DNA from: an uncultured Gammaproteobacteria bacterium
GTDB taxonomy: Bacteria; Patescibacteriota; Microgenomatia; UBA1406; HO2-37-13b
Length of the DNA stretch: 64,000 bases
NCBI GenBank assembly: GCA_964612595.1
Contig: CAZTFB010000001.1
Span: 131,058 to 195,057 of the forward strand
Direction of reading: 5' to 3'
In this document: positions 23,037-63,045 of the stretch, piece by piece
How the letters are laid out: the number at the start of each line of letters is the position of its first letter
How positions within the stretch are numbered: position 1 is the first letter of the stretch
Made by a program: the position numbers and the translations under genes
Notes under the pieces: model-generated
The model's input: the letters and a program-made list of their open reading frames with translations, nothing else
Told to the model about the DNA's origin: nothing
The model's database searches: none

Positions 23037-23129
23037 GCCAGATTAATAATTCATTGCTGGCTGAAAACATAAGCTCTCCGCCAACACGACTTGTCCTTTC
23101 GGACTCATCCATAAGAGTTTCCCCTTATG

Positions 23130-39902: not shown

Positions 39903-39904
39903 AG

Positions 39905-45354: not shown

Positions 45355-45380
45355 ACATATTTACTGTTGCTCCTCAGTTT

Positions 45381-46694: not shown

Positions 46695-47849
46695 TTAGCA
46701 ATCAGAGCCTAATGCCCCTACGCAATTTTCTGTTGGTGGTTTGCCCCGTTCAGGACATTTTTCTGAATAAAGACAGGCATCATCGCTAATCGAGTTAATT
46801 TGAGATTTAATGACCTCATCCTTAGGTCCGTAACTAATTAGAATTTTGTCCAAGTCAGAGATCTCATAATTTCCGAACTTGTCATTCGGCTTACCATTGA
46901 CGTTGAATTTAAGAGAGTTTTTATCATCATTACAATATTTTTTGCCGTCGTCTGTAATAAAACACTGGTTATCAAAACTTATTCCAATACTTTTGAAAAA
47001 GTAGCCAAGCGTTACACCTTGGCGATGTTTGTGAGTCACTTCTCCATTCCCATCATGTACATGGGTATAAGGGTCCTTTGAGTCTTGATACTGATCGGAT
47101 GTGAAATCAAAAATCTTACCGTTCAAATAAACCTTAAAATCTGCATGCTCATGAACCTTATCTCCAAGTTTTGGTTCGTCTGCCTTAGGCGCTTTCAAGA
47201 TTGCGGCTTTGATAAGGGTCTTGAAATCTTCTGGAGTTTTGGGATTCTGCAATTTTTCGCCATTTAGAAAAAATGATGGAGTTCCACTTACACCAAGGCT
47301 CTGTCCAGATGCTTTATCTCGCTCAACTCGATCTTTGACTTCTTTGGAAGATACATCTTTCTTAAACTGTTCAAGATTTAAACCAATTTGTTTTGCATAG
47401 CCTTCAAATATAGTAGGATCGGCAAATTGCTTCTCTCCCCAACTACTTTGGTTTTCAAAAAGCACATCATGCATTTCCCAATATTTCCCTTGCTTGCTTG
47501 CTGCCTCAACACTTAGGGCAGCCTGCATGCCATTTTTATGCCCCGGAAGAGGAAAGTATCTACTCACAAAACGAACTTCTGTTTTGAACTCCTCTGACAG
47601 CTGTTTTACAAGTGGATAGTAGGCACCACAGGCTTCACATTCAAAATCAAGATATTCAATAAGTGTTACGGAGGAGTCTTTATTTCCTTTGATATGGTCA
47701 TCGGAAACAATGTCAATGAGTTCTTTTTGAGCGTCAGATGGTACTTGTGTGGAAGTCGATCCAGTTTTGTTTATCAATAAATATCCGGCGACAATAATAG
47801 CAAGTGATACAGCTGTGATTATTGAAATTAGTTTTTTATCTCCTGTCAT
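46695..47849 (-). CDS. Membrane-anchored DsbA-family thioredoxin fused to a His/Cys-rich C-terminal domain
   Basis: 384 aa. TM anchor, DFECEACGAYYP (CxxC), then ~170 aa with HEHADFKVYLNG..THVHDGNGEVTHKH and 6 Cys. Confidence 0.8.
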   Translation of the reverse strand: MTGDKKLISIITAVSLAIIVAGYLLINKTGSTSTQVPSDAQKELIDIVSDDHIKGNKDSSVTLIEYLDFECEACGAYYPLVKQLSEEFKTEVRFVSRYFPLPGHKNGMQAALSVEAASKQGKYWEMHDVLFENQSSWGEKQFADPTIFEGYAKQIGLNLEQFKKDVSSKEVKDRVERDKASGQSLGVSGTPSFFLNGEKLQNPKTPEDFKTLIKAAILKAPKADEPKLGDKVHEHADFKVYLNGKIFDFTSDQYQDSKDPYTHVHDGNGEVTHKHRQGVTLGYFFKSIGISFDNQCFITDDGKKYCNDDKNSLKFNVNGKPNDKFGNYEISDLDKILISYGPKDEVIKSQINSISDDACLYSEKCPERGKPPTENCVGALGSDC

Positions 47850-47857
47850 GGTAGGTC

Positions 47858-47885
47858 ATTATACTATGTTTTGTAGTAAGTGTAA
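47858..47885 (-). promoter_or_regulatory. Promoter TTACAC-N16-TATAAT with a degenerate ACTACA-AAA-CATAGT box in the spacer
   Basis: -35 at 47885-47880, -10 at 47863-47858, box at 47863-47877. Two mismatches to the palindrome seen at three other promoters. Confidence 0.4.
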
Positions 47886-47911
47886 ATTACTGTTTTAAGA
47901 TCTCCCCACTT

Positions 47912-48235
47912 CTAAAAAGTAATTACCTTATCATAAACTGCAATTAGGCGATATAAATCTGCGATTCCTCCTGCTGGACAGGCTTTACTATCGACTTGAT
48001 GTCTGGTTATCATGCAGGTTTCACAAGCAATAATCCTACTTTGTTCATATGAAAGAAACTTTTTAACCTGCCCTTTGATGTTAAATTGATCTGAACTATT
48101 TGATTCGTATTCAACACCTTCGCCGATAAGGAAAATACTCACTTCATCCTCCTTCTTCAGAGCTAAGTTGGCAAGGCGTAAGGCATTCCAATTCTTTTCA
48201 GCGTTGTTGGTTGATAGAATAATAGCTAGTTTCAT
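47912..48235 (-). CDS. DsrE/DsrF-like family protein
   Basis: Start at ATG 48235 (MKLAIILSTNNAEKNWNALRLANLAL..) with AAGGAA upstream. Conserved Cys pair region (ACETCM..ACPAGG). Confidence 0.7.
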   Translation of the reverse strand: MKLAIILSTNNAEKNWNALRLANLALKKEDEVSIFLIGEGVEYESNSSDQFNIKGQVKKFLSYEQSRIIACETCMITRHQVDSKACPAGGIADLYRLIAVYDKVITF

Positions 48236-48272
48236 ATTAGTTCCTTGTTTATAACATTTTATGATCAATACA

Positions 48273-50486
48273 TTATATTTTGACTAAGTCCTTTTCTATT
48301 CGCTTAAGCAATACTGCATTTGTTGCAACAATAATTGATGAGATACTCATCAAAAGTGCTGATATTTCAGGACGCAGTGATATTCCAAAATTTGGATATA
48401 AGACACCCGCAGCAACAGGTATAGCAAGCAGATTATAAATTGACGCCCAAAAGAGGTTTTGCTTCATTTTTCTTACTGTTGCCTTACTTAATCTGATAGC
48501 TCGTAAAATATCTGCTGGATCAGATTTCATTAAAACCACTTTTGCAGTCTCTATCGCTACATCAGTGCCAGCTCCTATGGCGATGCCTATATCAGCAGTT
48601 GCAAGGGCAGGAGCATCATTAACTCCATCCCCAACCATTGCAACAAATTTTCCTTCTTTTTGGAGCTTTTTAACATATGAAGCTTTCTCTTCGGGTAGAA
48701 CTTCAGCAAATATTCTATCTATACCAAGCTGTTTTCCAATAGCTTCTGCAGTTACTTTGTTGTCTCCGGTAATCATTGCTACTTCTAGACCTAATTCCTT
48801 CATTTTCTCAATTGCACGCTTAGCTGTTTCTTTAACAGGATCTTGAGCAGCCACGATTCCAGCCAGTTTTCCATTTATGGCAACAAGCATTAATGTTTTA
48901 CCCTCAGAAAGCAGTCGATCAATATCATTTTGGAGCAAAACCATGTCAATCCCACCATCTTTGATAAGCTTTATATTCCCGACAAGCACTTGTTTCCCTT
49001 CTACGATAGCTTTAACACCATGTCCTGAGATAGATTGAAATTTTTCTACCTGCTGTGGGATCGTAATTTTTCTTCTTTTAGCTTCCTCAAGGATAGCGCC
49101 GCTTAGAGGATGGCCTGATTTAGCTTCAGCGGCGGCATTTAATCGTAATACTTCTTCTTTTAAAAATCCATGCGCTGCAATAACATCAGTAACCTTAGGT
49201 TTTCCTTGTGTAAGCGTGCCCGTTTTATCAAGCACTACAGCCTGAATTTTTGACACCTGTTCAAGAGTTGGTGCATCCTTAATTAAGATGTTATGCTTGG
49301 CCCCGAGTCCCGTACCAACCGCTACTGCCGTTGGTGTCGCCAAGCCTAATGCATCAGGGCAGGCAATTACTACAGTTGAGATGGCAAAGGTTAGGGCAAA
49401 TAAAAACGATTCTCCCATAACGAAAAACCAGATGGCAAAGGTTAGGATTCCTCCTCCAACAGCGACAATAACCAAATATTTTGCAAACTTATCAGCAAGT
49501 TTTTGACCAGGGGCTTTTGAGTTTTGGGCCGTCTCGACCATTTTAACAATTTGAGCAAGGGCAGTATCTCCACCTACTTTTGTTGCTCTAAACATGATTG
49601 ACCCTGAAGTATTGATTGAGCCACCGATAACCATGTCGCCCTTTTTCTTAGAGACAGGAATAGACTCACCAGTAACCAAGGATTCGTCAATTGCAGTCTC
49701 TCCTTCAATAATTTCACCATCAACAGCTACTTTATCTCCTGGCTTAAGGACAAGAATATCTCCAACTATTACATCAGATGTTGGAATTAATTGTTCTTTT
49801 CCATTTCGAATTACTCTCGCCTGTGGTGGAACGAGATTAAATAGTGCTTGCAATGCGTCAGTTGTTCCTCGCCTAGACTTCATCTCCATCCAGTGCCCAA
49901 ACAAAACAAATGTTGTCAACATTGCTGCTGCTTCATAAAACGACTCCATACTTCCCAGTAATGTCAAAACAATACTAAAGACATATGCTGCGGTGATCCC
50001 AACAGCAATAAGTACGGCCATATTAAGGGTTTTCAGTTTTAAGGCAATATAGCTTGAATAGAGGAATATCCAACCGCAATAAAAATAAACGGGGGTTGTT
50101 AATAGCAACATTAACCAATTCTCAGAAATCGGCGTTGGCAGATTAAGTCCAAAGATATTTTTTCCAAGTGGTGAGTATGCAACAATTGGAATGGTTAAAA
50201 TAAGTGATACAAAAAATTTATTTCTAATATCTTCTTCCATTAGCTTTGCCATCTCTCTACCTGCGAGTCCGGTGTGATCCATCCCCATAGCCATTGTCAT
50301 GCTCATTTTGAATTTTTCCCATACCGTCATTTCTTCAGACGGCTTCATCGTGTGGCCCCTGTGCTTATTATGATTCATATCGTTGCGATCCATCTTCACT
50401 TCTACTTCAACGAGTTTCATGCCACATCTATGACAACTACCAGGTTTATCTTGTTGAACTTCAGGATGCATTGGACAGGTATACAT
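48273..50486 (-). CDS. copB: CopB-type (P1B-3-like) heavy-metal P-type ATPase with N-terminal YTCPMHPE zinc-ribbon-like metal-binding domain and a CPD transmembrane motif
   Basis: 737 aa. MYTCPMHPEV..CHRCGMKL; DKTGTLT; GDGVNDAP; TM6 MSISSIIVATNA as in CopB. The TM4 motif reads ACPDALGLATP (codons TGC CCT GAT at 49361-49353) instead of CPH/CPC. Confidence 0.9.
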   Translation of the reverse strand: MYTCPMHPEVQQDKPGSCHRCGMKLVEVEVKMDRNDMNHNKHRGHTMKPSEEMTVWEKFKMSMTMAMGMDHTGLAGREMAKLMEEDIRNKFFVSLILTIPIVAYSPLGKNIFGLNLPTPISENWLMLLLTTPVYFYCGWIFLYSSYIALKLKTLNMAVLIAVGITAAYVFSIVLTLLGSMESFYEAAAMLTTFVLFGHWMEMKSRRGTTDALQALFNLVPPQARVIRNGKEQLIPTSDVIVGDILVLKPGDKVAVDGEIIEGETAIDESLVTGESIPVSKKKGDMVIGGSINTSGSIMFRATKVGGDTALAQIVKMVETAQNSKAPGQKLADKFAKYLVIVAVGGGILTFAIWFFVMGESFLFALTFAISTVVIACPDALGLATPTAVAVGTGLGAKHNILIKDAPTLEQVSKIQAVVLDKTGTLTQGKPKVTDVIAAHGFLKEEVLRLNAAAEAKSGHPLSGAILEEAKRRKITIPQQVEKFQSISGHGVKAIVEGKQVLVGNIKLIKDGGIDMVLLQNDIDRLLSEGKTLMLVAINGKLAGIVAAQDPVKETAKRAIEKMKELGLEVAMITGDNKVTAEAIGKQLGIDRIFAEVLPEEKASYVKKLQKEGKFVAMVGDGVNDAPALATADIGIAIGAGTDVAIETAKVVLMKSDPADILRAIRLSKATVRKMKQNLFWASIYNLLAIPVAAGVLYPNFGISLRPEISALLMSISSIIVATNAVLLKRIEKDLVKI

Positions 50487-50500
50487 TTTTATATTATTTT

Positions 50501-50995
50501 TTATTTTCCACTAAAATGTTCAGTGACACCATTTATCATCTGTCGCACACACCACTTGGCATACATTTTGCCAAATAATTGACCAAGTAATCGTGAAATT
50601 ATTGCTTCGGGAAGTTCGTAATCAATAAATACCCTCAATTGAGATACGCTATCCTTGGCGTTTATTTTAAAGCCCATTTTATAATTGCCGATAACCAAAA
50701 GTTTGGGAGCTCCTACTGTCTCCCATTCTTTCCGACGAGGTGGTTCATGATGTGTTACGACTTCGTCAAGATATAGATTAATTCCAAAAACCTTTCCTTT
50801 CATTTGAATGTGTGAACCAACCGTTTTACCCTGCCCTTCATCTAATTCAGTTTTCATGCTTCCACCACCCATCATCCATGAAGACTTATTCATATGCGAT
50901 GAAAAATGTTTATGATCATCAGCATAGTTAAAGACATCTTCTGGAGAAGCTTGTATGAGCGAAGTTTCCTCATCGTGGTGTATTTTACTTTTCAT
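50501..50995 (-). CDS. SRPBCC (START/polyketide-cyclase-like) family protein
   Basis: 164 aa. The overall pattern (..SPEDVFNYADDHKHFSSHM.. to a C-terminal helix) resembles SRPBCC. Recall-based. Confidence 0.55.
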   Translation of the reverse strand: MKSKIHHDEETSLIQASPEDVFNYADDHKHFSSHMNKSSWMMGGGSMKTELDEGQGKTVGSHIQMKGKVFGINLYLDEVVTHHEPPRRKEWETVGAPKLLVIGNYKMGFKINAKDSVSQLRVFIDYELPEAIISRLLGQLFGKMYAKWCVRQMINGVTEHFSGK

Positions 50996-50996
50996 G

Positions 50997-51851
50997 TTAT
51001 TTAGGCATACATAGTTGGTTAACTTCTTTCATAATAGATGAAATTTTTGAATCTTGCAGTCCGAGTGATTGAAGTGCACTCCTACTGTCTAACAAATCTT
51101 TACAAAGAACAATTCCACGTTCTAGAAGCTGTTGTTTTTGAAAATTACTTAATTGCATTAGACATGTAATTGGATGTAACCCTGTTTGATCTATGAGTAC
51201 TTCCAAACCTTCTTTGGGGGGATGGTTCCAACCAATTGTTTTCATTCCAGAGCACCTTGCATATTTTATGGCGTCGCTTGTGAGCTTAGTGTTTGTAACA
51301 AGCCATGCTTCATGGAATTTGTTGGTGTGACCAGGATTTTGTTGCCATGCCTTTTCAACATCCCTAAATCGTGCTTCAATATAGAGAGCTACTTTTACAT
51401 CTGTTTTAATCCCTGACTGATTGTGGAACTTACACTCAACCATTAGGTGACGATTATCCTTTAGGGCAATAACGTCTATTTCATGAGTAACACAAAAACC
51501 TGAAACGACCCTTCCTACTTCAATTGCATATCCTTTCGATGCGAGAATTTTGCCAACTAGCTTTTCAAATGGATGACCACTTGGACCAAACTGCATTATG
51601 GCACGTTTCAGCGAATATCGACTAGCCACAGAACGCTCATATTTTTTAAGTAAAGTGAATGCTTTTTGATAAATATCACGGGTTTCATCACCATTTTTAA
51701 GCCCACCTTCAACATGAGCAATAACTTTTTCTATACTCTCTGCAGAGGCATGAACTCGTTCAAGTGAGAGTCGCAGCTTGGTTTGCGAAAACGGCTCCAT
51801 TTCTCCCGAGGCTTTTTTTATTAATATTTTTTTCCAATTAATGTCTGTCAT
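50997..51851 (-). CDS. ATP-cone domain fused to a restriction-endonuclease-like (Mrr_cat-type) domain
   Basis: 284 aa. N-terminal ILIKKASGEMEPFSQTKLRLSLERV (ATP-cone), then FEKLVGKILASKGYAIEV..EIDVIALKDNRHLMVECKFH (PD-(D/E)xK core). Confidence 0.7.
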   Translation of the reverse strand: MTDINWKKILIKKASGEMEPFSQTKLRLSLERVHASAESIEKVIAHVEGGLKNGDETRDIYQKAFTLLKKYERSVASRYSLKRAIMQFGPSGHPFEKLVGKILASKGYAIEVGRVVSGFCVTHEIDVIALKDNRHLMVECKFHNQSGIKTDVKVALYIEARFRDVEKAWQQNPGHTNKFHEAWLVTNTKLTSDAIKYARCSGMKTIGWNHPPKEGLEVLIDQTGLHPITCLMQLSNFQKQQLLERGIVLCKDLLDSRSALQSLGLQDSKISSIMKEVNQLCMPK

Positions 51852-51869
51852 ATTTTATTTCGTTTTCAA

Positions 51870-52538
51870 TTAGCTCTTCATCTTTTGTATCATGCTTTTA
51901 GCGTTTGAAATTAATACTATCTGAATTATACCCATCCAGTTTGACTCATTTTTCACAGATAAGCCGGCTTCACCTACAATGCTTGTAAGGCCACTTTTTA
52001 TAAAAGGCATATAGTAGGGGGTTTCAAACAACCTGATAAATGGGGAAAGCAGGCGAGCCACTATATGTTTACTTGGCTCCATATGTTCAACGATTAAAAT
52101 ACAGCCATTCTTTTTGACGACTCTTTTTACTTCTAAAAGAGTTGCAAGTTCAATCTCATGTGGCATGTCGTGCAGACCCAAGGATATCGAAGCTCCATCA
52201 AACTCATTATCCTTGAATGGTAATTCTGTAGCATCCGCCTGTATAAATTTAAGCTTAAGAGATCTATTCTCTAGTTTTTTTCTGGCCTGTTCTAGCATGA
52301 GGGGAGACAGATCTACCCCAATTACATCAAACCCGCACCTGGCTAATGTATACGCCTGCGCACCTGTCCCAGTCGCTACATCAATGATTCTTGCTGGCGG
52401 CTTTATAGGTAAAAATGCAGCTGCTCTTTGCCTTATGGGAAACAGGAAATACTTCTCGTAATCATATATTTTAGCCAATTTTCCAAAGTGCTGGTTATTG
52501 AATTGCTCATGTTTTTTAAAAAGATCGATGTGCTTCAT
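51870..52538 (-). CDS. Class I SAM-dependent methyltransferase (UbiE/COQ5-like)
   Basis: 222 aa. IIDVATGTGAQA motif I, DVIGVDLS, FDGASISLGLHDM. Confidence 0.85.
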   Translation of the reverse strand: MKHIDLFKKHEQFNNQHFGKLAKIYDYEKYFLFPIRQRAAAFLPIKPPARIIDVATGTGAQAYTLARCGFDVIGVDLSPLMLEQARKKLENRSLKLKFIQADATELPFKDNEFDGASISLGLHDMPHEIELATLLEVKRVVKKNGCILIVEHMEPSKHIVARLLSPFIRLFETPYYMPFIKSGLTSIVGEAGLSVKNESNWMGIIQIVLISNAKSMIQKMKS

Positions 52539-52568
52539 ATAAGGCCTACTAGGATTTTTGTATTTTTT

Positions 52569-54167
52569 TCATTGATCAATAACTTTAAATCTACTCATCA
52601 TTCCTGACTCCATGTGTTCAGGGATATGGCAGTGGACAACCCAGTCCCCAGGATTGTCCATTTGAACTAGAAGCTCAACCGTGTCTCCCGTTTGGATGAG
52701 TGTGGTATCTTTCCAAACCAGATTTTGATTTTTTTGTCCGTTGGTAGACAGCACTAGAAAACGCTGTCCATGAATGTGGACGGGGTGCTGCATCGGATGC
52801 ATCGACTGATCATCGTTGAAGATTTTAAACTTAACAATATCACCCTTCTTAAATTGCCAATTAATGTCCATATTAGCGTTTTGAGTTTCGTCATCAATGA
52901 TCATCCACTTGAGAGTATCCGTTGTTGAATTGGCATTCATCATACCCATATCGTCATCCCACTCGATTTTCTGTACATTGCCCATCGCCATCTGGCGGTT
53001 TCGCATCATTTGGCTTGTACCCATCTTGTGTCCACCCATTGAGTCATTTTGCGTCGTTGACTTCTCGTTTCCCATTTGCATACTCAAAGTAACATTTTTA
53101 TCTGCGGTCTTATCAAACAGGGAACGTAGTGCAGTAATTGAGGCTATAAAGTCGTTGTTGATCCTTGGTGAAACTACAAAAGGAGTTATGTCAGCATTTG
53201 CGCTTACAGCAATTGTCCCTAATGTATACGATTTGTCGGGAGTATTGTTAACCATTTCATAATTCCCAGCTTTGTCGAACCAAATCTCAACTATTTGTCG
53301 TTCAGATGGACCGATAATCACTGAATCCACCCATTCCTCACGCTCATATTTTCCGTTATCGCTACCCACTAACTTCATCTGAGTATTGGGAATTGTAAAA
53401 TTAAACGTCCTCGTATTGGCTGAATTTGTAATATAGAGACGTACACGCTCACCTTGTATAATTGATAATCTGTAATCGTCGTCGCCATTAACAAGCATGG
53501 TATTGCCGAATCTTCCCATAAGCGTGTGGTTCACAGTTGATTTGTCAAATGTGGCAATTTGCCCGTTTTCAATCAAAATATCGTCCAGAAAAAGGGTTTC
53601 TTCACGATCAACTTCCGCCCAATAGTCCGATGTATTAGGGGTAACTAAAAAGTTTCCATACAACCCTAATTCCTGAGCATAATCTTCACGAACATGGGGA
53701 TGATACCAGTAAATTCCTGCATCAGGAAACTTAAGTTCATAAGTAAATGATTGACCTGGTTTAACTGCATTTTGTGTTACGTCAGGTACACCATCAAACT
53801 TGTTTTCAACCCTGATGCCGTGAGAGTGGACAGTGCTATCAACGTCAGTGTCGTTTTTGAAGTTCAGAGTTATTTGTGCTCCCTGAGACACTTTGATCAA
53901 AGGACCAGGAATTGAGCCATTGTAAGCGAGCATTTTCATTTCTTGCCCATTAATAGTCTTTTTGACAATGCTGGCAGTAAGGTTATAGATATCACCATCT
54001 TTAAGTATCACAATTTCCTGAGGTTTGACTGTATTCATTTGTTGGGCTGAAGTAGAAAATTTTCCACTCGTACGAGAACGATTAGGGTACATAAGTAAGC
54101 TGAATATAACTATCAATGCACCTATGATGACAATGGTTGCTGCAATATAAAAATGTTTTTTATTCAT
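52569..54167 (-). CDS. Multicopper oxidase with Met-rich insert
   Basis: 532 aa. HSHG, WYHPH, HPVHIHG and HCHIPEHMESGMM copper-ligand motifs. Met-rich segment MGGHKMGTSQMMRNRQMAMG..MGMM. N-terminal TM/signal anchor. Confidence 0.92.
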   Translation of the reverse strand: MNKKHFYIAATIVIIGALIVIFSLLMYPNRSRTSGKFSTSAQQMNTVKPQEIVILKDGDIYNLTASIVKKTINGQEMKMLAYNGSIPGPLIKVSQGAQITLNFKNDTDVDSTVHSHGIRVENKFDGVPDVTQNAVKPGQSFTYELKFPDAGIYWYHPHVREDYAQELGLYGNFLVTPNTSDYWAEVDREETLFLDDILIENGQIATFDKSTVNHTLMGRFGNTMLVNGDDDYRLSIIQGERVRLYITNSANTRTFNFTIPNTQMKLVGSDNGKYEREEWVDSVIIGPSERQIVEIWFDKAGNYEMVNNTPDKSYTLGTIAVSANADITPFVVSPRINNDFIASITALRSLFDKTADKNVTLSMQMGNEKSTTQNDSMGGHKMGTSQMMRNRQMAMGNVQKIEWDDDMGMMNANSTTDTLKWMIIDDETQNANMDINWQFKKGDIVKFKIFNDDQSMHPMQHPVHIHGQRFLVLSTNGQKNQNLVWKDTTLIQTGDTVELLVQMDNPGDWVVHCHIPEHMESGMMSRFKVIDQ

Positions 54168-54276
54168 ATCTTTTATTTTGACTAATTATTGATGTTAATT
54201 TCATAAATACTACCTTGATATCCGCATTCTGTTACAAAATCTAATACACGACGCGACTATTTATCGAAACTACCTA

Positions 54277-56556
54277 TCAAATTTGACGTTTTTTAAGTAG
54301 CAGTGAGTTGGTTACAACAGAAACACTACTAAATGCCATTGCCGCTCCGGCTATAGCGGGGTTTAACAAAATTCCTGTAAACGGGTAGAGTGCTCCGGCA
54401 GCCACAGGAATACCGATAATGTTATAAAAAAATGCCCAGAATAAATTCTGTTTTATCACTCTCATAGTAGCTCTGGCAAGTCTCACGGCCTTTGGCAGTT
54501 TTGAGATATGACCGCCAAGCAGGGTAATTCCTGCCGATTCTATGGCTACATCAGTTCCTGTCCCCATTGCAACGCCCACATCAGCAGTCACAAGAGCTGG
54601 CGCATCGTTGATCCCATCTCCCACCATGGCCACTTTAAATCCTTCACTCTGGAGTTTCTTAATCTCTTTCGCTTTGTCCGCTGGCAATACTTCAGCTAGA
54701 ACGCGATCTATCCCAACTTGTTTGGCAATGTACTCAGCAGTCCTGTGGTTATCACCGGTAAGCATAGCTACCTTTATTCCCAGTTTATGAAGTTCTGATA
54801 TTGTTTCTTTGGCGTCTTCTTTAATCGTATCAGCGATAGCTATGTATGCTAGAATTGTTTTTTTGGTGGCAAATACAACTGGAGTTTTACCTTGAGAGGC
54901 ATATTTTTTTACCAGTGAGTCATCTACCTCAAGTCCAAAATCTGCTGCCAGTTTAAGATTGCCCACCACATAATGCGTGCCTAAAATATCCCCTTCGAGT
55001 CCTTTTCCTTCGATCGCTTTAAAGTCAGTAACCGAGAGTAAACTAAGTTCTTCCTCCTTAGCCTTATTTACCACCGCCTGAGCCAGAGGATGCTCTGAAT
55101 GCTTCTCAAGTGAAGCTAGTAGTTGTAAAATATTCTCTTGTGTATTTTCAACGATTGTTACAATATCGGTTACTACCGGAGTTCCATTGGTAATGGTTCC
55201 AGTTTTATCTAATACCATAAAATTAACGCTTTGAAACTTTTCCAAACTTTCTGCATTTTTAATGAGAATTCCATTCTGTGCTGCCTTACCAACTCCTACG
55301 ATCACGGCAGTCGGGGTAGCCAAACCCATAGCACAGGGACAGGCGATAACCAAAATGCCTACAAAGCTAATCAGTCCTAAGGATACCGCCTGAGACACGG
55401 CCATAAATTGAGAACCCACAATGAGCCATAACAGAAACACAATGACAGATAAAATTAAGACTACCGGCACAAAAACCCCTGATACTTGATCGGCAATTCG
55501 CTCAATTGGTGCTTTGGAACCCTGTGCTGATTCAACCATTTTAATAATCTGAGAGAGCATGGTCTGATCACCGATTTGGGTGGCCTTCATTTGAAAAGAG
55601 CCTTGCTTATTAATAGTCGAGCCAATTACCTTGTCTCCTACAACTTTATCTACCGGAATCGACTCACCGGTAATCATTGACTCGTCAATTGAGGAGTTGC
55701 CTAAAATTATTTCCCCATCCACAGGAATCTTAGCGCCTGGTTTTACGATAAGAATATCTCCTTCAATTACTTCGTCAATTGGAATCTCGATTTCACGACC
55801 ATCCCGCACAACAATCGCTGATTTAGCGGCGAGCCCTAATAATTTTTCTATGGCCTCTCCGGTTTTAAGTTTTGATTTTGCTTCAAGGTACTTCCCTAAA
55901 GTAATAAAACCTATTACTACGATTGTTACATCATAGTAAAGTCCTTCGGGAGCATTCAGGAGTGTTTTTATTGTCGGGAAAAGAAGCAATATGCTGCTAT
56001 AAGTAAAAGCAATCAGTGTTCCTATTCCCACCAGCGTATCCATGTTGGCAGCTCTATATTTGATAAAGCGCACAACGCCTTTGATAAATGGTTGACCAAT
56101 CCAGAACATGATCGGGGCAGCAAGGATAAATGAAGCTCGGTTAAATGCATCCATTGACAAAGGAAAGATAGGAATGAAGCTCAAGCGGTGTGAAAGTAGC
56201 TCCCAAATCATCAGGACAAATACAACTGCTGCAATTGGCATTGCGAAAGCAGTTTTTTGCCTCATTTCTTCAAGCTCTTTAAGCTTTTGTTCTTTAGTGC
56301 TATCTTGTAATATTGATGTATCTTTTTTTGCCTGGCCAACAACCTGAATATCTTCCAGTGAATATCCAAGTGGTGAAACTTGATTATTCATTATCGGAAG
56401 AGATACCTTAGTATTGTCAAAAATTACATCAGCTTTTTCCGTAGCCATGTTCACAGCACATGATGTGACGCCATCAAGCTTCTCCAGTTTTCGTTTGATG
56501 ATAGATGCACAAGATGCACAGTGCATACCAATTACTTTAAAAGTTTGAGTTTTCAT
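54277..56556 (-). CDS. copA: Copper-translocating P1B-1 ATPase
   Basis: Start at ATG 56556 ([17 protein letters not shown]) with GGAGG upstream. HMA domain, [37 protein letters not shown]. Confidence 0.95.
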
Positions 56557-56561
56557 AGGCT

Positions 56562-57716
56562 TTAGGGTGTTCCTCCTAGCTGACGAGACCAAAGACTTAT
56601 ACCATTTGGCATCTTCCCGACATTAATTTTGGCAATTTCTTTATCTGTCGCAGAATCAATCACAGAAACGTCATTACTTAATAAATTAGTAAGGTATGCT
56701 CGCTTACCATCATAAGAGACAACTACGCCATGTGGAGCAACACCCGCTTGAATACGTTGGACAACTTCTCTATTTTGAACATCAATCTTATATACATAAT
56801 CACTGGTCGGTTTGCCAAAATAATATCCCTGGTCAGCGACATAAAGATATTTACCATCGGGAGTTGCGTATAATTGGATAGGACCCTCGGCTTCAGGAGG
56901 CAACTGTGCATAGTAAATTTCTTGCGTTACTGTATTGTAGAACGCCACTTGTTTTGTATCATAAACCGACGCGGCAATATATGAACTATTGGGAATTATT
57001 GCAGTTTGGACAACGATTCCACCAAGCGGAACCGTCTTTACCGTATTCGATTCGGTATCAATTATTCCAAGCCCTTTTCCTTCGATAAAAGCTACATACG
57101 CTGTTGCATCATCTGGAGCAAGCCTCAATCCGTGAGGTTGTGAATCTTTTGTTAGGGGAATGGTTTTCTCGATTTCAAATGTTGTACCATTTATCCGATA
57201 TACCAATCCTGTTTCTTGGGCGGTGGCAAAAATGCTATCTCCAGCGCGAGTTACCACAATGTGTGCTAAATGCTGATCTGATCCAACATCAATCCGTTTC
57301 ATAATTGCATCTTTTTGAGGATCAATAACGATTATTTGGTCTGGAAAGAGTTTTTTCTCAACTATTTTCTCAGGCATCGCTTGCTCATTATGATCACCAA
57401 AACCAGTAAAATTAGCAGTCACCCAAACAGATTTTCCGTCAGGGGCGACCTGCACATTGTGTGCCGAGTAACTGATCATTTGCCCGTCCTTATTCTCAGT
57501 CAGATCAATCTCTCCAAGCAGTGAATTATCACTTGTGTCGACTACCGCTATTGCGCCATCTTCCTCTAAAGCAATATACAATTTTTCTGTGGATTGACTA
57601 CTCTTAACTGTAGATGAGTTTAGACTTGATATCTGATCAGACAAAAAAACGAATGAGAAAACAATCACAATGAAGATAATTGATAAGACTAAAAAGGGAG
57701 ATTTGAATTGATTCAT
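56562..57716 (-). CDS. YVTN/YncE-like beta-propeller repeat protein, exported
   Basis: 384 aa. N-terminal TM/signal sequence, repeated ..YVA/YLTN..VSVID.. units. Confidence 0.75.
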
Positions 57717-57985
57717 TGTGATTTTTTGAATACTTGCATAACTTCTTTTATAGCGATATCTTTTTTACCTTTGCCAATAGCATCAGCTACACATTTCTGT
57801 AAATGATTCTCAAGCATCAGATTATCTGCCTCTTTAAGAGCCTTCTGAATGGCCTGGGACTGATGAAGCACATCAATACAGTATTCATTTTCTTCGACCA
57901 TCTTAATGACTTTGGAAAGATGTCCCCGTGTTATTTTAAGCCGGTGAAGTATTCGCTCTTGTGTGTCTTTAGGTCTGTATGTCAT
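57713..57985 (-). CDS. csoR: CsoR-family copper-sensing repressor
   Basis: 90 aa. RLKITRGHLSKVIKMVEENEYCIDVLHQSQAIQKAL..LQKCV, with the C-H-C ligand positions. Confidence 0.88.
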   Translation of the reverse strand: MTYRPKDTQERILHRLKITRGHLSKVIKMVEENEYCIDVLHQSQAIQKALKEADNLMLENHLQKCVADAIGKGKKDIAIKEVMQVFKKSQ

Positions 57986-57988
57986 ATA

Positions 57989-58007
57989 TATCCCCCTTAT
58001 GGGGATA
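57989..58007. promoter_or_regulatory. CsoR-type operator: TATCCCC-N5-GGGGATA
   Basis: G/C tracts in an AT-rich pseudo-palindrome between the -10 element and the csoR ATG (57985), as in described CsoR operators. Confidence 0.6.
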
Positions 58008-58036
58008 ATATACTACATATTGTAGTTAGATGTCAA
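58007..58036 (-). promoter_or_regulatory. csoR promoter TTGACA-N18-TATATT with a perfect palindrome ACTACATATTGTAGT (58012-58026) in the spacer
   Basis: -35 at 58036-58031, -10 at 58012-58007. The palindrome shares a 14-mer with the site at 61529-61543. Confidence 0.6.
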
Positions 58037-58051
58037 GTATGCTATCTTGCA

Positions 58052-58267
58052 TTAGTTAACGGCCTCAGCAGTATACTCGAGAGATTCAAATACAAGAAGA
58101 ATTTTTTCGAGGGTAGTCTTTTGGGGATCAAACGAAACAACTGTTTGTTGTTTTGCGTAGTTTGTCGTTGCGTTTGAAACTCCGTCTATATCTTCCAGCT
58201 CAAAATCGATATTCATGGCGCAGCTCGTACAATGCATACCCGTGATTTTAAGAGTGACTGTTTTCAT
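58052..58267 (-). CDS. copZ: CopZ-like copper chaperone (HMA domain)
   Basis: 71 aa. MKTVTLKITGMHCTSCAMNI. Confidence 0.9.
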   Translation of the reverse strand: MKTVTLKITGMHCTSCAMNIDFELEDIDGVSNATTNYAKQQTVVSFDPQKTTLEKILLVFESLEYTAEAVN

Positions 58268-58272
58268 ATCTC

Positions 58273-59310
58273 TTAAATAACATTTATTGATCCTCGATAC
58301 ATTCCCATGCTACACATAAAAGCGAGTGGTCCGGGAGTAGAGGGGGCCGTAAATTCTATCGTATCTGATTTACCAATAGGAATAACTGATTGTAAGTTCA
58401 TTGTGGGAATAGTAAATGACTGTATACATCCGCCGCCACCCTGGTTTACAATATTAAACTTTACCTTAGAACCGGCTTTTACATTCACCGTTTCCGGTTC
58501 TGTTCGGTAGCCACCTTGGGTGATAATAATTTTTGCTTCACTCACTGTATCTGTAGCTGTTGCAGCTCCTGCGATTGCATCATTGTCACAAATACTGATT
58601 GTGCATTTTACCTCAGCAAATATGTTTTCAAGCGTAAACGAGCTTCCTGTGAGTGCAATGGCACCATTAAGATTGTAAATGGCAATGAGGATAATGGCTG
58701 CGGCTGCGATTTTGTTAAACGTCTGGCTCGCAGATGTTCCGAGTCGTTTTGCTGCGTATCCTAAAATAAAGAACAAAGGTGATGTTCCCAGTATAAAAGT
58801 AAACATGGTAACTGCTCCCGCCAGTGGCGAACCTGTCGTTATGGCGTAAGCCATCATGGCTTGTGTTGCCCCGCAGGGAATAAGTACCGTCATCGCCCCA
58901 AGAATAGCCGGTCCAAACAGCGCTTTACTTTTTGACTGGTTCTTTATTAATCGAGTCAGGAATTTTGGTGGTTGGATTACAAAGTAGCGAAAAATCGGAT
59001 GAGCGTTGAGCAAGTTTAGCGCAGTGCCGATCATAAATAGTGCCACAACGAACTGTAAGATTACTCGGGTAGAAAGCGATAACTGGAATACCGATCCCAG
59101 TGACCCGAGTAATAATCCTAGTAATGTGTAGGCGATCAGGCGAGTTACGAGAAATGAAAGAATAGGAACTGCGTGTCCTTTCATAGCCTCATCCTTTAAC
59201 TTATCTGACTCTTGCTGAGCTATTGAGGAGGCAAGGAGTCCTCCCTGCACAGCTAAGCAGGTGAGTCCTCCTGCAAACAGTCCGGTTATAAAAATTGTCG
59301 TAATATCCAT
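58273..59310 (-). CDS. TauE/SafE-like permease fused to a C-terminal cupredoxin-like domain
   Basis: 345 aa. Polytopic N-terminal 230 aa, then ..KAGSKVKFNIVNQGGGGCIQSFTIP..LAFMCSMGMYRGSINV (C..C..M ligand-like pattern). Confidence 0.72.
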   Translation of the reverse strand: MDITTIFITGLFAGGLTCLAVQGGLLASSIAQQESDKLKDEAMKGHAVPILSFLVTRLIAYTLLGLLLGSLGSVFQLSLSTRVILQFVVALFMIGTALNLLNAHPIFRYFVIQPPKFLTRLIKNQSKSKALFGPAILGAMTVLIPCGATQAMMAYAITTGSPLAGAVTMFTFILGTSPLFFILGYAAKRLGTSASQTFNKIAAAAIILIAIYNLNGAIALTGSSFTLENIFAEVKCTISICDNDAIAGAATATDTVSEAKIIITQGGYRTEPETVNVKAGSKVKFNIVNQGGGGCIQSFTIPTMNLQSVIPIGKSDTIEFTAPSTPGPLAFMCSMGMYRGSINVI

Positions 59311-59332
59311 AGGTTATATATTATATCGTATC

Positions 59333-60085
59333 TTACGATCCCAATGCCTTATCGATCATTGGTTTTACCTGATCGAATGGCAATGCACCATTAATAAATT
59401 GGGTTTCACCTTTCCCATCTATAATGATAGTACCAGGTGTTCCGGAAACTCCTTCTTCTGTCCCTTTTGCCATCTGATCCTTTACTTTTTGTGCCATTTC
59501 ATCGCTGTCTAGACAACTCTGAACTGCTTGTTTGCTTGCTCCAGCTTCAGCACCGAGATCTGCAAGTTTATCCAGTGCGAACCCAGTTCCATTTGATGTT
59601 GTTCGCTCGTAGTACAGATCTGTAAATTTCCAAAATGCTTCATTTCCTGCTAACTTTCCAACACACTCTGAGGCCTCTGCAGCTTTCTGGGCATTAGCAT
59701 GGAATGAAAGAGGAAAATGCCTGTATACCCACTTGACTTTATCTCCGTATTCTTTCATGACTTGTGTCATAGTGGGGTGAAACCGCTGACAAAACGGACA
59801 CTCAAAATCGGAATATTCAACTAAAGTGACTTTTGCATTTTCACCACCACGAAACCAGTCCTTATCTGTAACTTCGGGCTTTTTCGCAGCCTTTTGAGGA
59901 GCTTCTGGTTGCGTACCACTATCGGGAGCATTACCGGCCTGTTGTGGGTTAGTTCCACCAGCTGACCCACCTTTTTCAAGATAATTTACTTTTGTCCACA
60001 AGGAACCAATAACGAATGCCGCCACAATAAGCATGACGACAATAATAGTATTACTGTTAACACGAATTTTCTTCTGTTCTGACAT
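59333..60085 (-). CDS. Membrane-anchored DsbA-family thiol:disulfide oxidoreductase
   Basis: 250 aa. TM anchor, DFECPFCQRFHP. Confidence 0.85.
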   Translation of the reverse strand: MSEQKKIRVNSNTIIVVMLIVAAFVIGSLWTKVNYLEKGGSAGGTNPQQAGNAPDSGTQPEAPQKAAKKPEVTDKDWFRGGENAKVTLVEYSDFECPFCQRFHPTMTQVMKEYGDKVKWVYRHFPLSFHANAQKAAEASECVGKLAGNEAFWKFTDLYYERTTSNGTGFALDKLADLGAEAGASKQAVQSCLDSDEMAQKVKDQMAKGTEEGVSGTPGTIIIDGKGETQFINGALPFDQVKPMIDKALGS

Positions 60086-60110
60086 AATTATTTATAAAAC
60101 TAATAAAGTT

Positions 60111-60146
60111 ACTACAAAATGTAGTAAATTTATTCCTCAATGTCAA
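60111..60146 (-). promoter_or_regulatory. Promoter TTGACA-N17-TACATT overlapped by the perfect palindrome TTACTACA-AAA-TGTAGTAA
   Basis: -35 at 60146-60141, -10 at 60123-60118, 15-bp core box at 60111-60125. Upstream of the dsbA-tauE/cupredoxin-copZ genes. Confidence 0.65.
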
Positions 60147-60158
60147 GGGGTCAAATTA

Positions 60159-61160
60159 CTATAGTACCGACGCTGGACTATAGGGAATTGATTTATTTAG
60201 AGCTGGGCTCATGCGTTGCATTTCTTGTATGTTCGCCTTGCACTGCGTGACACATTGCTCGTTATTTGCACATACCATAATTGCATCCTGCCCGTTTTCA
60301 TGAAATTCAATAGCATGTACTGGCGCTACTATCAGACCTAGTAAAACAAGAATTGAAAAAAGACTCAGGGCACTATTTTTTAGTGAATATTGCGAAATAA
60401 ATTGCTTTTTCAAGAATAGTGACTCTATTCTTGCCTGTAGGGTGTCTTCTGCAGCAAGTGTTGGAAAATACGCAAATGCAGGTTGTGGATTTCTTAGAAG
60501 TTTCTTAAGAACTGCAGATACAACCTGGTGATTACCTCCCTCAGATGCATATTCATCAGCTGCAATTTCACGTTCTATTCTAAAATTATTGACTAAATTA
60601 GAGAGTATAGGAATTAATGGAAATGTACTCTGAACAATATGAGCGAACAGAATTGATCGATTATCATTGTGCATGAGGTGATGTTTTTCGTGCTTAAGAA
60701 TAACCTCAAGTTCACGAGTAGAGGTTATGGAAAGAAGGCCTGTTGAAATATATATTTCTGGTTTTAGTAGCCCGTAACACAATGCCAATGGCTGCTTATT
60801 TTTAATGATGTGTACTCTACTTAGTAAACCAAGCTTTTGTATAAGTTTGTCCAATCTGGATGAGTGTTGTGTTATTTTTTGCTGTGTTAAATTTCTAGCA
60901 ACAATTATGAGTTGGACGATTGTCATAGTAAACCTCACACCAACTAGCGTAAGAACAAAAATTACTGGTACAAGGAAGACAACATTAGAATTTTGGGGTA
61001 AACTGTGATTGGTAAACGACTTAATAATTTCTTGACAGTAAAAAATAGTTGAATGAAAAAGAAATGGTGCGTATTTTTGCACCAGTATCCCAAGAAGCCC
61101 GACAAGCACTAAGAAAAGTAAAACTATTTGAAGAATATGATTATTTGCTTTCTTTTTCAT
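60159..61160 (-). CDS. BlaR1-like M56 peptidase lacking a penicillin-binding sensor domain
   Basis: Start probably at ATG 61160 (MKKKANNHIL..). HEKHH zinc motif (ILKHEKHHLMHND), 4-5 TM segments. Only ~55 aa follow the last TM segment, containing C-x5-C-x3-C. Confidence 0.8.
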   Translation of the reverse strand: MKKKANNHILQIVLLFLVLVGLLGILVQKYAPFLFHSTIFYCQEIIKSFTNHSLPQNSNVVFLVPVIFVLTLVGVRFTMTIVQLIIVARNLTQQKITQHSSRLDKLIQKLGLLSRVHIIKNKQPLALCYGLLKPEIYISTGLLSITSTRELEVILKHEKHHLMHNDNRSILFAHIVQSTFPLIPILSNLVNNFRIEREIAADEYASEGGNHQVVSAVLKKLLRNPQPAFAYFPTLAAEDTLQARIESLFLKKQFISQYSLKNSALSLFSILVLLGLIVAPVHAIEFHENGQDAIMVCANNEQCVTQCKANIQEMQRMSPALNKSIPYSPASVL

Positions 61161-61524
61161 ATTGTTCAAGTTGTTGTATAAAATAGTCTCTTTTTTTCTT
61201 AGGGAGTTGATCGACGGATTGCGCAAATGAAGCGATCGCAGCGTCTCCAAATGATCGAATAAATTTAGTTAAAAAAGACTGCGCAACGGTTTTACTCATT
61301 GTCTCTTTTGAGAGAGTTGGAACATACGTTGCGGCAAATTTCTCACCCTGTTTTCTTATAGCTCCCTTTTCACTGAGGCGTGTGATTATTGTAGCAACTG
61401 TAGTATATGCCAAGGATTTTTCTTTACTTACCCGATTCACAACATCACGTATCGTACACTCACCCAACTCCCAAATAATTTCCATTACCTCCAATTCCAG
61501 TTTGCTAAGTGGTTTTATTTTCAT
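61141..61524 (-). CDS. BlaI/MecI/CopY-family winged-helix repressor
   Basis: 127 aa. LSKLELEVMEIIWELGECTIRDVVNRV..AYTTVATIITRLSEKGAIRK. No C-terminal CxCxxxxCxC copper motif. Confidence 0.88.
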   Translation of the reverse strand: MKIKPLSKLELEVMEIIWELGECTIRDVVNRVSKEKSLAYTTVATIITRLSEKGAIRKQGEKFAATYVPTLSKETMSKTVAQSFLTKFIRSFGDAAIASFAQSVDQLPKKKRDYFIQQLEQYEKESK

Positions 61525-61528
61525 GGTT

Positions 61529-61564
61529 ACTACATATTGTAGATAAGAATAATTGTGATTGCAA
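61529..61564 (-). promoter_or_regulatory. blaI-like gene promoter TTGCAA-N17-TACAAT overlapped by the ACTACATATTGTAGA box
   Basis: -35 at 61564-61559, -10 at 61541-61536, box at 61529-61543. Only 11 nt lie between the -10 element and the ATG, implying a very short or absent leader. Confidence 0.65.
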
Positions 61565-61575
61565 GTTAGAACTGT

Positions 61576-62019
61576 ATGTTACCTAATTTTTATTTCACAA
61601 AAATTCTTAAAGATAATTATGACTTGCTAAGTGGGATAAAAAAGCAAGCTGAGTTGTATAATAAATACATGACAAACTTGGAGATGTTCGCTTCATATAT
61701 TTTTGTAATTCAACTCGCTCATTCATTTGAAGAACTTATTACAGGATTTCATAAAAGATGGTATTTATTTAAAATGCCATTTAGATTATTTCTTGGATTC
61801 GAGTTGTTGTTTAATTTATTCTGGGCTTTGGTACTATTTTCAAGACAATTTCCAGCCCGAGAGCAATTATTAGCCTTTTTTATCGTATTAATGTTTGCAA
61901 ATGGAATTCAACATATTGTTTGGTTTGCTTTAGAAAAGAAATATGTGCCGGGTCTGATAACAGCACCTATGCACGTTATTTTGTTTCTGGTTTACTACTA
62001 TCAAGTGATTTTTGGATAA
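61576..62019 (+). CDS. HXXEE-domain membrane protein
   Basis: 147 aa. AHSFEELITGFHK, 4 hydrophobic segments. Confidence 0.65.
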   Translation: MLPNFYFTKILKDNYDLLSGIKKQAELYNKYMTNLEMFASYIFVIQLAHSFEELITGFHKRWYLFKMPFRLFLGFELLFNLFWALVLFSRQFPAREQLLAFFIVLMFANGIQHIVWFALEKKYVPGLITAPMHVILFLVYYYQVIFG

Positions 62020-62766: not shown

Positions 62767-63045
62767 AGTGATAACCCACCTGTAATCCTCCCTATTATAT
62801 AGCACTATGGAGGATTTGTATGTCTTTCCTTATTTATAAGAATAAAGAGGAGAAGAAATAATAACGATTCGTGCGTGAGATGAGAGTATTTTTACTATAA
62901 AGGGCTATAGCAAAGTAACTCGATTGTTGGTATAGCTTGAAAGGGTAATTTAGCCTCCTTAAAAAGAAAAGATAAATTTATCAGTCGATCATTCTGCTAT
63001 CAAATCGGCCGTCTTTGTAATATAATCCATACCAAATAAATACCT

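Follow-up and report, generated by a model that had tools for sequence, protein, structure and literature searches.

A BlaI-type repressor gene in a copper and disulfide island

The stretch analysed here, called the window throughout, comprises 64,000 nucleotides of contig CAZTFB010000001.1 from an uncultured patescibacterium, a member of the candidate phyla radiation (CPR). Judged by its homologues, the organism belongs to the Microgenomates group and stands close to Roizmanbacteria. The window carries an island of copper and disulfide genes that includes a 127-aa repressor of the BlaI/MecI/CopY family, and copies of a 15-bp palindrome, ACTACA-N3-TGTAGT, lie in the promoters of this island; we refer to the palindrome as the box and consider it the predicted operator of the repressor. 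The genes of the copper and disulfide region are all on the minus strand, and Pfam backs the earlier gene calls with one correction: the protein encoded at 58273-59310, to which a first-pass annotation of the sequence had assigned a TauE part, matches the DsbD_2/CcdA-like family PF13386 (4.5e-35) and not TauE. Reading down from 61524, the order is blaI, the M56 protease gene, dsbA, the DsbD_2-cupredoxin gene, copZ, csoR, YNCE, copA and a multicopper oxidase gene, followed by three unrelated genes, for a methyltransferase, an Mrr-like nuclease and an SRPBCC protein, and then by genes for a second P-type ATPase, DsrE, the DsbA-fusion and a CDF transporter. The genes on which the argument turns are the following:

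61141-61524, minus strand: BlaI/MecI/CopY-family winged-helix repressor, 127 aa (PF03965 Penicillinase_R, 6.8e-26)
60159-61160, minus strand: M56 (BlaR1-like) membrane zinc protease, 333 aa (PF05569, 3.4e-13; HEKHH at residues 157-161), overlapping blaI by 20 nt
59333-60085, minus strand: membrane-anchored DsbA-like thiol-disulfide oxidoreductase with a CPFC active site (Thioredoxin_4, 1e-25; DSBA, 8.9e-17), first gene of a predicted box-controlled operon
58273-59310, minus strand: DsbD_2/CcdA-like membrane domain (PF13386, as above) with a C-terminal cupredoxin fusion (PF13473, 1.9e-11)
58052-58267, minus strand: CopZ-like HMA copper chaperone (Pfam HMA, 8.6e-14), last gene of the dsbA operon
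57713-57985, minus strand: CsoR copper-sensing repressor (PF02583, 1.1e-22; C36, H61, C65)
56562-57716, minus strand: YNCE-like beta-propeller (PF21783, 1.3e-12), overlapping csoR and copA and presumably in the same operon
54277-56592, minus strand: CopA-type P1B copper ATPase with an N-terminal HMA domain (E1-E2_ATPase, 9e-56; HMA, 2.1e-13), presumably the distal gene of the csoR operon
46695-47849, minus strand: DsbA-like domain (CEAC) with a His/Cys-rich C-terminal domain, 384 aa, the DsbA-fusion (Thioredoxin_4, 7.7e-27, residues 50-215 only)

The 127-aa protein scores 91.3 bits against PF03965 (cut-off 22.6) over profile positions 1-114 of 115 and could be aligned to residues 8-110 of BlaI 1SD4 and 7-107 of MecI 1OKR, and also to BlaI 1XSD. 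It had been described as the only member of its family in the window, and tblastn indeed finds no other; the reported lack of the CopY Cys motif was likewise borne out, as the protein contains no CxC or CxCx4CxC and its single cysteine, Cys23, is not conserved in homologues. It falls below the NCBIfam cut-offs for both CopY/TcrY (TIGR02698, 52.1 bits vs 121.95) and BlaI/MecI, and the classical cop box with its 2-nt spacer, TACANNTGTA, has no match in the window. Membership of CopY was considered and rejected on the missing Cys motif, the TIGR02698 score and the absence of N2 cop boxes from the window.

A 15-bp palindrome in four promoters of the island

Four copies of the box had been reported in the first-pass annotation, and all of them were recovered, position and sequence alike:

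61529-61543: predicted operator box 1, TCTACAATATGTAGT in gene orientation; it overlaps the -10 of the blaI promoter, and 4 nt separate its end from the ATG of that gene
60109-60127: predicted operator box 2, TTACTACA-AAA-TGTAGTAA, perfectly palindromic over its 8-bp arms and placed on the dsbA operon's -10
58012-58026: predicted operator box 3, perfectly palindromic, which takes up the spacer between -35 and -10 at csoR
47863-47877: degenerate box 4, ACTACAAAACATAGT on the minus strand, with two mismatches in the right arm, in the spacer of the DsbA-fusion promoter

The second of these had been noted as a 15-mer at 60111-60125 that could be extended to 8-bp arms, and this extension is seen at 60109-60127. 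We counted matches to the box pattern ACTACANNNTGTAGT in the 64-kb window, which is the scope of our box scan for this genome. With at most one mismatch, exactly three matches were found where 0.12 are expected, and none of 100 dinucleotide shuffles reached three. The perfect copies are those at 58012-58026 and 60111-60125, and the one-mismatch copy is that at 61529-61543; its first base is not A, and a non-A first base is the usual form at blaI promoters of relatives. When two mismatches were allowed, the count rose to seven against 2.8 expected and 4 of 100 shuffles reached seven, so that the site at 47863-47877, one of four two-mismatch matches in the window, is not significant alone. The original set of four sites thus stands for its three enriched members, whereas the fourth is better described as a conserved degenerate variant, as set out below.

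In the 17.5 kb between 45.5 and 63 kb, the promoter-like sites that score best on the minus strand are those at the four boxes. Each had been said to fall on a -35/-10 pair at 16-18 bp spacing, and our promoter scan agrees, giving spacings of 17-18 bp and scores of 9-11 out of 12:

61564-61536, minus strand: blaI-M56 promoter-like site, TTGCAA-17-TACAAT, 9/12 matches, with the -10 inside the left box arm
60146-60118, minus strand: dsbA operon promoter-like site, TTGACA-17-TACATT, 10/12
58036-58007, minus strand: csoR promoter-like site, TTGACA-18-TATATT, 11/12
47886-47858, minus strand: DsbA-fusion promoter-like site, TTTACA-17-TATAAT, 11/12, with the ATG 8 nt past the -10

At the DsbA-fusion and blaI promoters (47849-47886 and 61524-61564) a mere 8-11 nt separate the end of the predicted -10 from the ATG, with no recognisable Shine-Dalgarno sequence, and the blaI-M56 and DsbA-fusion mRNAs are therefore probably leaderless or nearly so. 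Unlike these two genes, csoR has a ribosome-binding site, which is the GGGGGA of the CsoR operator.

Conservation of the box with the regulator

Loci were fetched around BlaI homologues of 34-80% identity, yielding 61 unique CPR loci (869,358 nt), and 17 BlaI-family loci from outside the CPR (Legionella and others; 333,086 nt) served for comparison. The blaI-M56-dsbA order, together with copper genes, is syntenic across Microgenomates, WWE3 and other Patescibacteria. We found 115 boxes with at most one mismatch in the 61 CPR loci and none in the 17 non-CPR loci; box and BlaI-type regulator are thus linked, as the assignment of the palindrome to this regulator had implied. The first-pass annotation had proposed homologous islands as a check on conservation of the box, and there it lies upstream of blaI in 48 of 61 loci, 4-7 nt before the start, and upstream of dsbA in 48 of 51; most blaI loci without such a box carry a two-mismatch copy at the same place. 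It also precedes csoR (6/15), the multicopper oxidase gene (3/11) and the second P-type ATPase gene (1/18). Within the proposed copper and disulfide regulon, blaI and dsbA are accordingly the near-universal targets, and the link to csoR/copA is found only in a minority of genomes. Within the CPR loci, the boxes are embedded in promoters as had been claimed for the window: the 190-nt stretches from -30 to +160 nt of the blaI, dsbA, csoR, multicopper oxidase and second-ATPase starts make up about 3.4% of the sequence, yet contain 106 of the 115 boxes, and a single box falls in a recognised coding sequence.

The register relative to the promoter is shared as well. In relatives, blaI and dsbA promoters (49 unique examples of each) follow TTGACA-N15-box, the left arm being the -10 (TACAnT), and at csoR the register is TTGACA-N4-box, which spreads the box across the whole spacer and makes its last T the first base of the -10. 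The arms are conserved among the unique CPR loci, and the 3-nt spacer and the flanks are variable. A TACA-N3-TGTA dyad occurs in the blaI, dsbA and csoR promoters, the regulator's own among them, and we predict with high confidence that the window repressor binds these boxes.

These registers also bear on a quite different explanation, namely that the palindrome is a shared promoter element, such as an unusual -10, or the site of another factor, and has spread with a mobile copper island. In its favour, the left arm also serves as -10 (TACAnT) at blaI and dsbA, as such an element would, and the island does lie in a conjugative-element-like context. Yet the arms are equally conserved and symmetric, they stay fixed while flanks and spacers diverge at protein identities down to ~35-50%, and at csoR and DsbA-fusion the box occupies the spacer and not the -10. 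In addition, the TACA/TGTA core is the known recognition element of the family, a box before blaI in nearly all loci is the usual signature of autoregulation, and CsoR has its own distinct site next to the box. We regard a mere promoter element, or the site of an unrelated factor, as highly improbable.

Two further observations were made on these loci. A one-mismatch box precedes a gene for a ~235-aa double-cupredoxin protein (Copper-bind, PF00127) in L010 (5777-5791, ACTACAAGAAGTAGT) and L042 (6204-6218, ACTACAATAAGTAGT), so that blue-copper proteins appear to be occasional members of the regulon. Many of the records L014-L060 are titled 'uncultured Gammaproteobacteria bacterium' and show the blaI-M56-dsbA order and a BlaI 46-72% identical to that of the window, like named Microgenomates; these titles look like a placeholder or wrong taxonomy.

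From the motif to its genes, and the fourth site

A metagenome scan with the pattern TTGACA-N15-ACTACA-N3-TGTAGTA (19 specified bases) returned at least 120 matching stretches, and 80 loci with 81 matches were examined. The first gene downstream encodes DsbA at 20 of the 81 matches, the DsbD_2-cupredoxin protein at 13, BlaI at 7, CsoR and DsbA-fusion at 2 each and CopA at 1. At least one homologue of the window's copper and disulfide genes was present at 67 of the 80 loci, many of the contigs being short. The remaining downstream genes include those for thioredoxin-fold proteins, a ~490-aa GCxxC membrane protein and a Cys-rich ~250-aa protein, and a few that are apparently unrelated.

A membrane protein of ~485-510 aa, marked by a conserved ATGC(S/P)VC motif and by clustered Cys at its C-terminus, is encoded directly 3' of promoter and box in about eight loci (among them L069 3960, L092 1396, L093, L097, L128, L132 and L152); it has no Pfam match and could be a regulon member, a thiol-redox membrane protein so far overlooked. 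A secreted or anchored protein of ~250 aa, with the motif CE(Y/F)CCG...DG.AACGCAHSQAMRGL and likewise no Pfam match, follows promoter and box in L100, L127, L151 and L164. Genes for VTT-domain and DUF6941 proteins 3' of the pattern have no link to the system and are taken here either to match by chance or to use a similar site without being related to it.

Regarding the fourth site, the window 15-mer ACTACAAAACATAGT followed by A(T/A)AAT recurs exactly upstream of DsbA-fusion orthologues in L024 (the complete WWE3 genome CP006914), L027 and L046, whose DsbA-fusion proteins are 58-61% identical to that of the window. The flanks of the 15-mer differ among these loci, that of L046 being unrelated, and the background chance of a two-mismatch box is 0.0076 per 170 nt. 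Because the identical 15-mer is present in three other genomes against this background, the site appears to be conserved, and it is probably a variant operator of weaker strength, with one perfect and one degenerate half-site.

Two predicted operators in the csoR promoter

A second palindrome lies immediately downstream of the box in the csoR promoter:

57989-58007: CsoR-type GC-rich perfect palindrome TATCCCCATAAGGGGGATA, between the -10 and the csoR ATG, overlapping the ribosome-binding site

It is the only palindrome of this type in the window. As it directly follows the box and the -10, the csoR promoter presents two different operators in tandem. The family features of CsoR are all found here, namely the PF02583 match, the Cu(I) ligands C36, H61 and C65 and the GC-rich palindrome at its own promoter. 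The palindrome is kept in 7 of 7 box-bearing csoR promoters (the window, L014, L017, L034, L038, L041 and L045), and the tandem arrangement, kept in six other genomes, supports the earlier suggestion that control through the box is layered on CsoR. The gene order csoR-YNCE-copA is also found in L007, L014, L017, L034 and L050. CsoR itself was rejected as the binder of the box, since its own GC palindrome adjoins the box and many box loci have no csoR.

The M56 protein as a candidate protease of the repressor

The gene that overlaps blaI encodes the M56 protein, and its start at 61160 agrees with public gene calls. An M56 gene was detected at 60 of the 61 unique CPR loci, and at every one of these it adjoins and overlaps blaI; HExxH is kept in 57 of 57 complete homologues; the pairing of repressor and M56 protease that had been described for the window, where the overlap is 20 nt, is therefore well founded. 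In an AlphaFold2 model of the protein (predicted local distance difference test, pLDDT, of 76), membrane helices span residues 7-35, 60-93 and 260-278, a confident protease domain occupies residues 94-250, and the last helix is followed by a beta-hairpin (281-298) and a further helix (301-317). A sequence search of PDB chains gave only a spurious designed-repeat match, so that the link to BlaR1 required a fold search: the top five PDB matches of the model in Foldseek are cryo-EM structures of S. aureus BlaR1 (entries 8EXQ/8EXS/8EXT/8EXR, probability 1.0, E down to 4.5e-7). By homology with BlaR1, the protease domain would be cytoplasmic and the 36-59 loop and the tail would face outward.

In BlaR1, beta-lactams are sensed by the C-terminal domain. 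The M56 protein has no penicillin-binding sensor domain and ends ~55 aa past its last helix; against NCBIfam blaR1_generic it scores 32 (cut-off 400), and only over profile positions 103-248 of 585. Genuine beta-lactam sensing of the BlaR1 kind was rejected on the absence of this domain. The extracytoplasmic tail of ~55 aa contains E285, H287, D292, C297, C303 and C307, and the 36-59 loop contains H36, Y41, C42 and Q43. A tail motif C-x4-7-C-x3-C is present in 47 of 57 homologues, and most of the others keep only E-x-H-x4-D-x4-C.

On the side of the repressor, S99-F100-A101 is invariant in 10 homologues of 50-100% identity and aligns with N101-F102 of BlaI, the bond at which S. aureus BlaI is cleaved (Asn101-Phe102; PMC1935004). 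Proteolytic inactivation of the repressor is plausible because the blaI and M56 genes overlap, HExxH is kept in every complete homologue, BlaR1 is the best structural match and S99-F100-A101 is invariant at the scissile bond, and we think it likely that the M56 protein is the enzyme that cleaves.

Besides PF05569, the M56 protein hits Peptidase_M48 (2.4e-08) and gives weak matches to HtpX models. It could accordingly serve, for example, in membrane protein quality control in the manner of HtpX/M48, with the repressor being released by a ligand or metal, as in CopY, or by another protease; CopY-type factors of the same Pfam family do use metal allostery. Several findings make such a division of labour very unlikely: the repressor lacks CxC and its one Cys is unconserved, blaI and the M56 gene stay overlapping and adjacent wherever M56 was detected, the residues aligned to the BlaI scissile bond do not vary, and the best structural match is BlaR1, not HtpX.

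A proposed switch and its signal

We propose, with moderate confidence, that the palindrome, in the form nCTACA-N3-TGTAGT(A), is the operator of the 127-aa repressor in a repressor/protease switch that regulates itself, responds to copper or thiol stress in the envelope and is layered on CsoR. A repressor dimer on the -10 (blaI, dsbA) or in the -35/-10 spacer (csoR, DsbA-fusion) would block RNA polymerase and keep blaI-M56, dsbA/DsbD_2-cupredoxin/copZ, csoR-YNCE-copA and, more weakly, DsbA-fusion repressed. The co-translated M56 protein would follow the BlaR1 plan of transmembrane segments and protease, with a short extracytoplasmic module in place of the penicillin-binding sensor. This module would sense envelope copper or copper-induced thiol damage, whereupon the cytoplasmic protease would cut the repressor at or near S99-F100; the cut would split the DNA-binding from the dimerisation domain, and the regulon would therefore be derepressed. 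The csoR-copA operon would also need cytoplasmic Cu(I) to release CsoR from the adjacent GC palindrome, and because of this second requirement it would integrate copper signals from outside and inside the cell.

As to the signal, we lean slightly towards copper as the trigger. The main rival keeps the same circuit and replaces the signal by the thiol-redox state of the envelope. The Cys residues of the M56 protein would then be substrates of DsbA: when reduced or mis-oxidised, they would cause the protease to fire, DsbA would rise and the sensor would be re-oxidised in a homeostatic folding loop, and the copper genes would be neighbours because copper causes disulfide stress. The target spectrum favours this view, as dsbA is a near-universal target (48/51) and csoR, multicopper oxidase and ATPase genes are sporadic ones, and the other box-preceded genes encode thioredoxin-fold or Cys-rich proteins of unknown family; the three conserved Cys of the tail and the conserved Cys of the outer loop fit it equally. 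The 10 of 57 homologues without CxxxC, however, keep E-x-H-x4-D-x4-C, which resembles a set of metal ligands more than a disulfide switch. CopZ, CopA, cupredoxin, multicopper oxidase or CsoR genes stand beside the pair at almost every locus, and the sole characterised pair of BlaI and sensor-less M56 protein responds to copper. We therefore consider a pure thiol-redox signal unlikely.

Several points weigh against the copper-responsive switch as a whole. The host bacteria are uncultured, and we infer binding, cleavage and signal from the sequences. The universal targets are blaI and dsbA and not copper exporters, with the csoR box present at 6 of 15 loci; the copper signal is consequently argued from the neighbouring genes and from tail-residue chemistry. 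The 3-nt spacing differs from the 2-nt spacing of the characterised BlaI/MecI and CopY operators, so that their binding geometry is not directly transferable. The right arm of the fourth site is degenerate, and a box with at most one mismatch was found upstream of 0 of 17 DsbA-fusion homologues. The extracytoplasmic loop and tail of the M56 protein, where the signal would be received, are modelled at low confidence (pLDDT 40-60), and the three-Cys motif is absent in 10 of 57 homologues, which mostly keep its first Cys. Finally, our scan of this genome covered 64 kb, and the specificity seen for the box in this organism holds for that stretch.

A further proposal, which we put forward only tentatively, concerns the outward-facing residues: the H36/Y41/C42 loop and the tail E-x-H-x4-D-x4-C-x5-C-x3-C may form a previously undescribed extracytoplasmic copper or thiol-redox sensor. 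Pairs of BlaI and sensor-less BlaR proteins might then be a general mobile CPR device for envelope stress that directly controls DsbA, with DsbA possibly feeding back on the sensor Cys.

Relation to known systems

We found no published description of a CPR BlaI-M56 copper and disulfide system in the literature on BlaI/BlaR1/M56 copper regulation and on CPR. Among published systems, PetR/PetP of cyanobacteria (Synechocystis Slr0240/Slr0241) comes closest; there PetR, a BlaI/CopY-family factor, undergoes copper- and PetP-dependent degradation by an M48/M56 membrane protease (bioRxiv 10.1101/2020.07.31.226407 = PNAS 2021). The comparison rests on the published description of architecture and site, not on sequence. 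In both systems an M56 gene comes directly after the regulator gene and overlaps it, its product contains HExxH and no beta-lactam sensor, the regulator lacks the CopY Cys motif and retains the Phe of the BlaI cleavage site, and the context is copper. The PetR site at petE, GACA-N3-TGTC between -35 and -10 (bioRxiv 10.1101/2020.07.31.226407), shares with TACA-N3-TGTA the 3-nt spacer and the position between -35 and -10, which here is that of the csoR and DsbA-fusion boxes; the outer base of the half-site is T here in place of G. The systems part in their targets: the PetRP regulon, which serves the plastocyanin/cytochrome c6 switch, consists of petE, petJ and two small genes only, whereas the CPR boxes precede dsbA, DsbD_2-cupredoxin, copZ and csoR-copA genes; the box-preceded double-cupredoxin genes in L010 and L042 are a faint echo of plastocyanin control by PetR. 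The CPR pair also carries its own operator, and the petRP mRNA is steady on copper addition (bioRxiv 10.1101/2020.07.31.226407). PetP has been proposed to sense copper through two Met in the loop between transmembrane segments 2 and 3, in contrast to the ~55-aa tail of the CPR M56 protein with its E/H/D residues and three Cys. The CPR hosts are non-photosynthetic, belong to another phylum and often carry the genes on conjugative elements. According to a 2023 review, copper homeostasis is not under PetRP control, and what BlaR homologues do in heterotrophs is an open question (PMC10141476).

BlaI/BlaR1 and MecI/MecR1 of Staphylococcus and Bacillus share with the CPR pair the combination of PF03965 and PF05569, the TACA/TGTA core and an operator at their own promoter, and they also provide the best structural match (BlaR1) and the scissile N101-F102 that aligns with S99-F100. 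The CPR M56 protein differs in lacking the penicillin-binding sensor, the gene order is blaI followed by the protease gene, and the targets are copper and disulfide genes and not those for beta-lactamase or PBP2a. The spacer has three nucleotides, whereas BlaI and MecI operators are TACA-N2-TGTA, TACANNTGTA (PMC1935004).

CopY, CopR and TcrY of the Lactobacillales belong to the same Pfam family and act on a TACA..TGTA dyad overlapping the promoter to repress genes for copper ATPases and chaperones, CopR of L. lactis with a multi-operon regulon. Direct sensing of Cu(I)/Zn(II) by CopY relies on a C-terminal CxCx4CxC, which the CPR repressor lacks, and CopY has no partner protease gene. The CopY consensus operator RNYKACANNYGTMRNY has a 2-nt spacer, in contrast to the 3-nt spacer of all conserved CPR boxes. 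The Scs (suppressor of copper sensitivity) thiol-oxidoreductase system of proteobacteria (ScsB/ScsC) offers a functional analogy to the main target operon, in which a DsbA/DsbC-like protein and a DsbD-like transporter serve in envelope copper stress (PMC8900818). It has other regulators, the CPR DsbD_2 domain is fused to a cupredoxin and the CPR operon ends with CopZ, and the resemblance is by analogy only.

Flanking genes and other elements of the window

The island is flanked by genes for TrbL/VirB6-like (43609-45354) and TrbC/VirB2 pilin-like (45381-45659) proteins, within 39132-45659, and for Replic_Relax (62038-62805). The blaI-M56 pair also stands beside relaxase and type IV secretion genes in L009 and L012, and this recurrence, together with the TrbL, TrbC and Replic_Relax genes around the island, suggests that in CPR bacteria a conjugative element carries the blaI-M56 cassette.

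Divergent from blaI, the plus strand encodes a 147-aa HXXEE-family membrane protein (61576-62019). Only 51 nt separate the two start codons, and the blaI box is thus also 33 nt upstream of the HXXEE ATG; L014, L015, L041, L043 and L213-L215 likewise have HXXEE genes near the pair. Between the multicopper oxidase and the second P-type ATPase genes lie those for a methyltransferase (51870-52538), an Mrr-like nuclease (50997-51851), which also shows a weak ATP-cone match below threshold, and an SRPBCC protein (50501-50995), and this trio (50501-52538) looks like an insertion in the metal island. The His/Cys-rich C-terminal ~170 aa of the DsbA-fusion protein (residues ~216-384) matched no Pfam family; orthologues of 389 aa in L005 and L006 adjoin CopA and CDF transporter genes. 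tRNA and Rfam scans of the window gave no element relevant to the box system. They did give a LOOT RNA (RF03000) at 23088-23219 on the minus strand, with 72 bits against a gathering threshold of 46.4 over the complete model, which is unrelated to the present finding.

Significance

The Patescibacteria are a large and almost entirely uncultured share of bacterial diversity. To our knowledge, few regulatory circuits have been described in them. Here, operator, regulator, candidate sensor and regulon can all be read from sequence, and the prediction is kept in about 60 genomes and on more than 100 metagenome contigs. The circuit would extend the copper-responsive proteolytic switch of BlaI/BlaR type, otherwise known only from PetR/PetP, beyond the cyanobacteria, and it bears on the role of sensor-less BlaR homologues in heterotrophs that was left open in PMC10141476. 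It suggests a two-compartment copper logic, in which an envelope signal passed on by the protease and cytoplasmic Cu(I) read by CsoR converge on one promoter, and the tail of the M56 protein offers a candidate for a new metal or redox sensing motif. Since conjugative elements often carry the module, groundwater communities may have in it a transferable cassette against copper and disulfide stress. If the reading of the loop and tail as an outward-facing sensor is true, this would be among the first CPR transcriptional circuits to be defined with operator, regulator, sensor and regulon.

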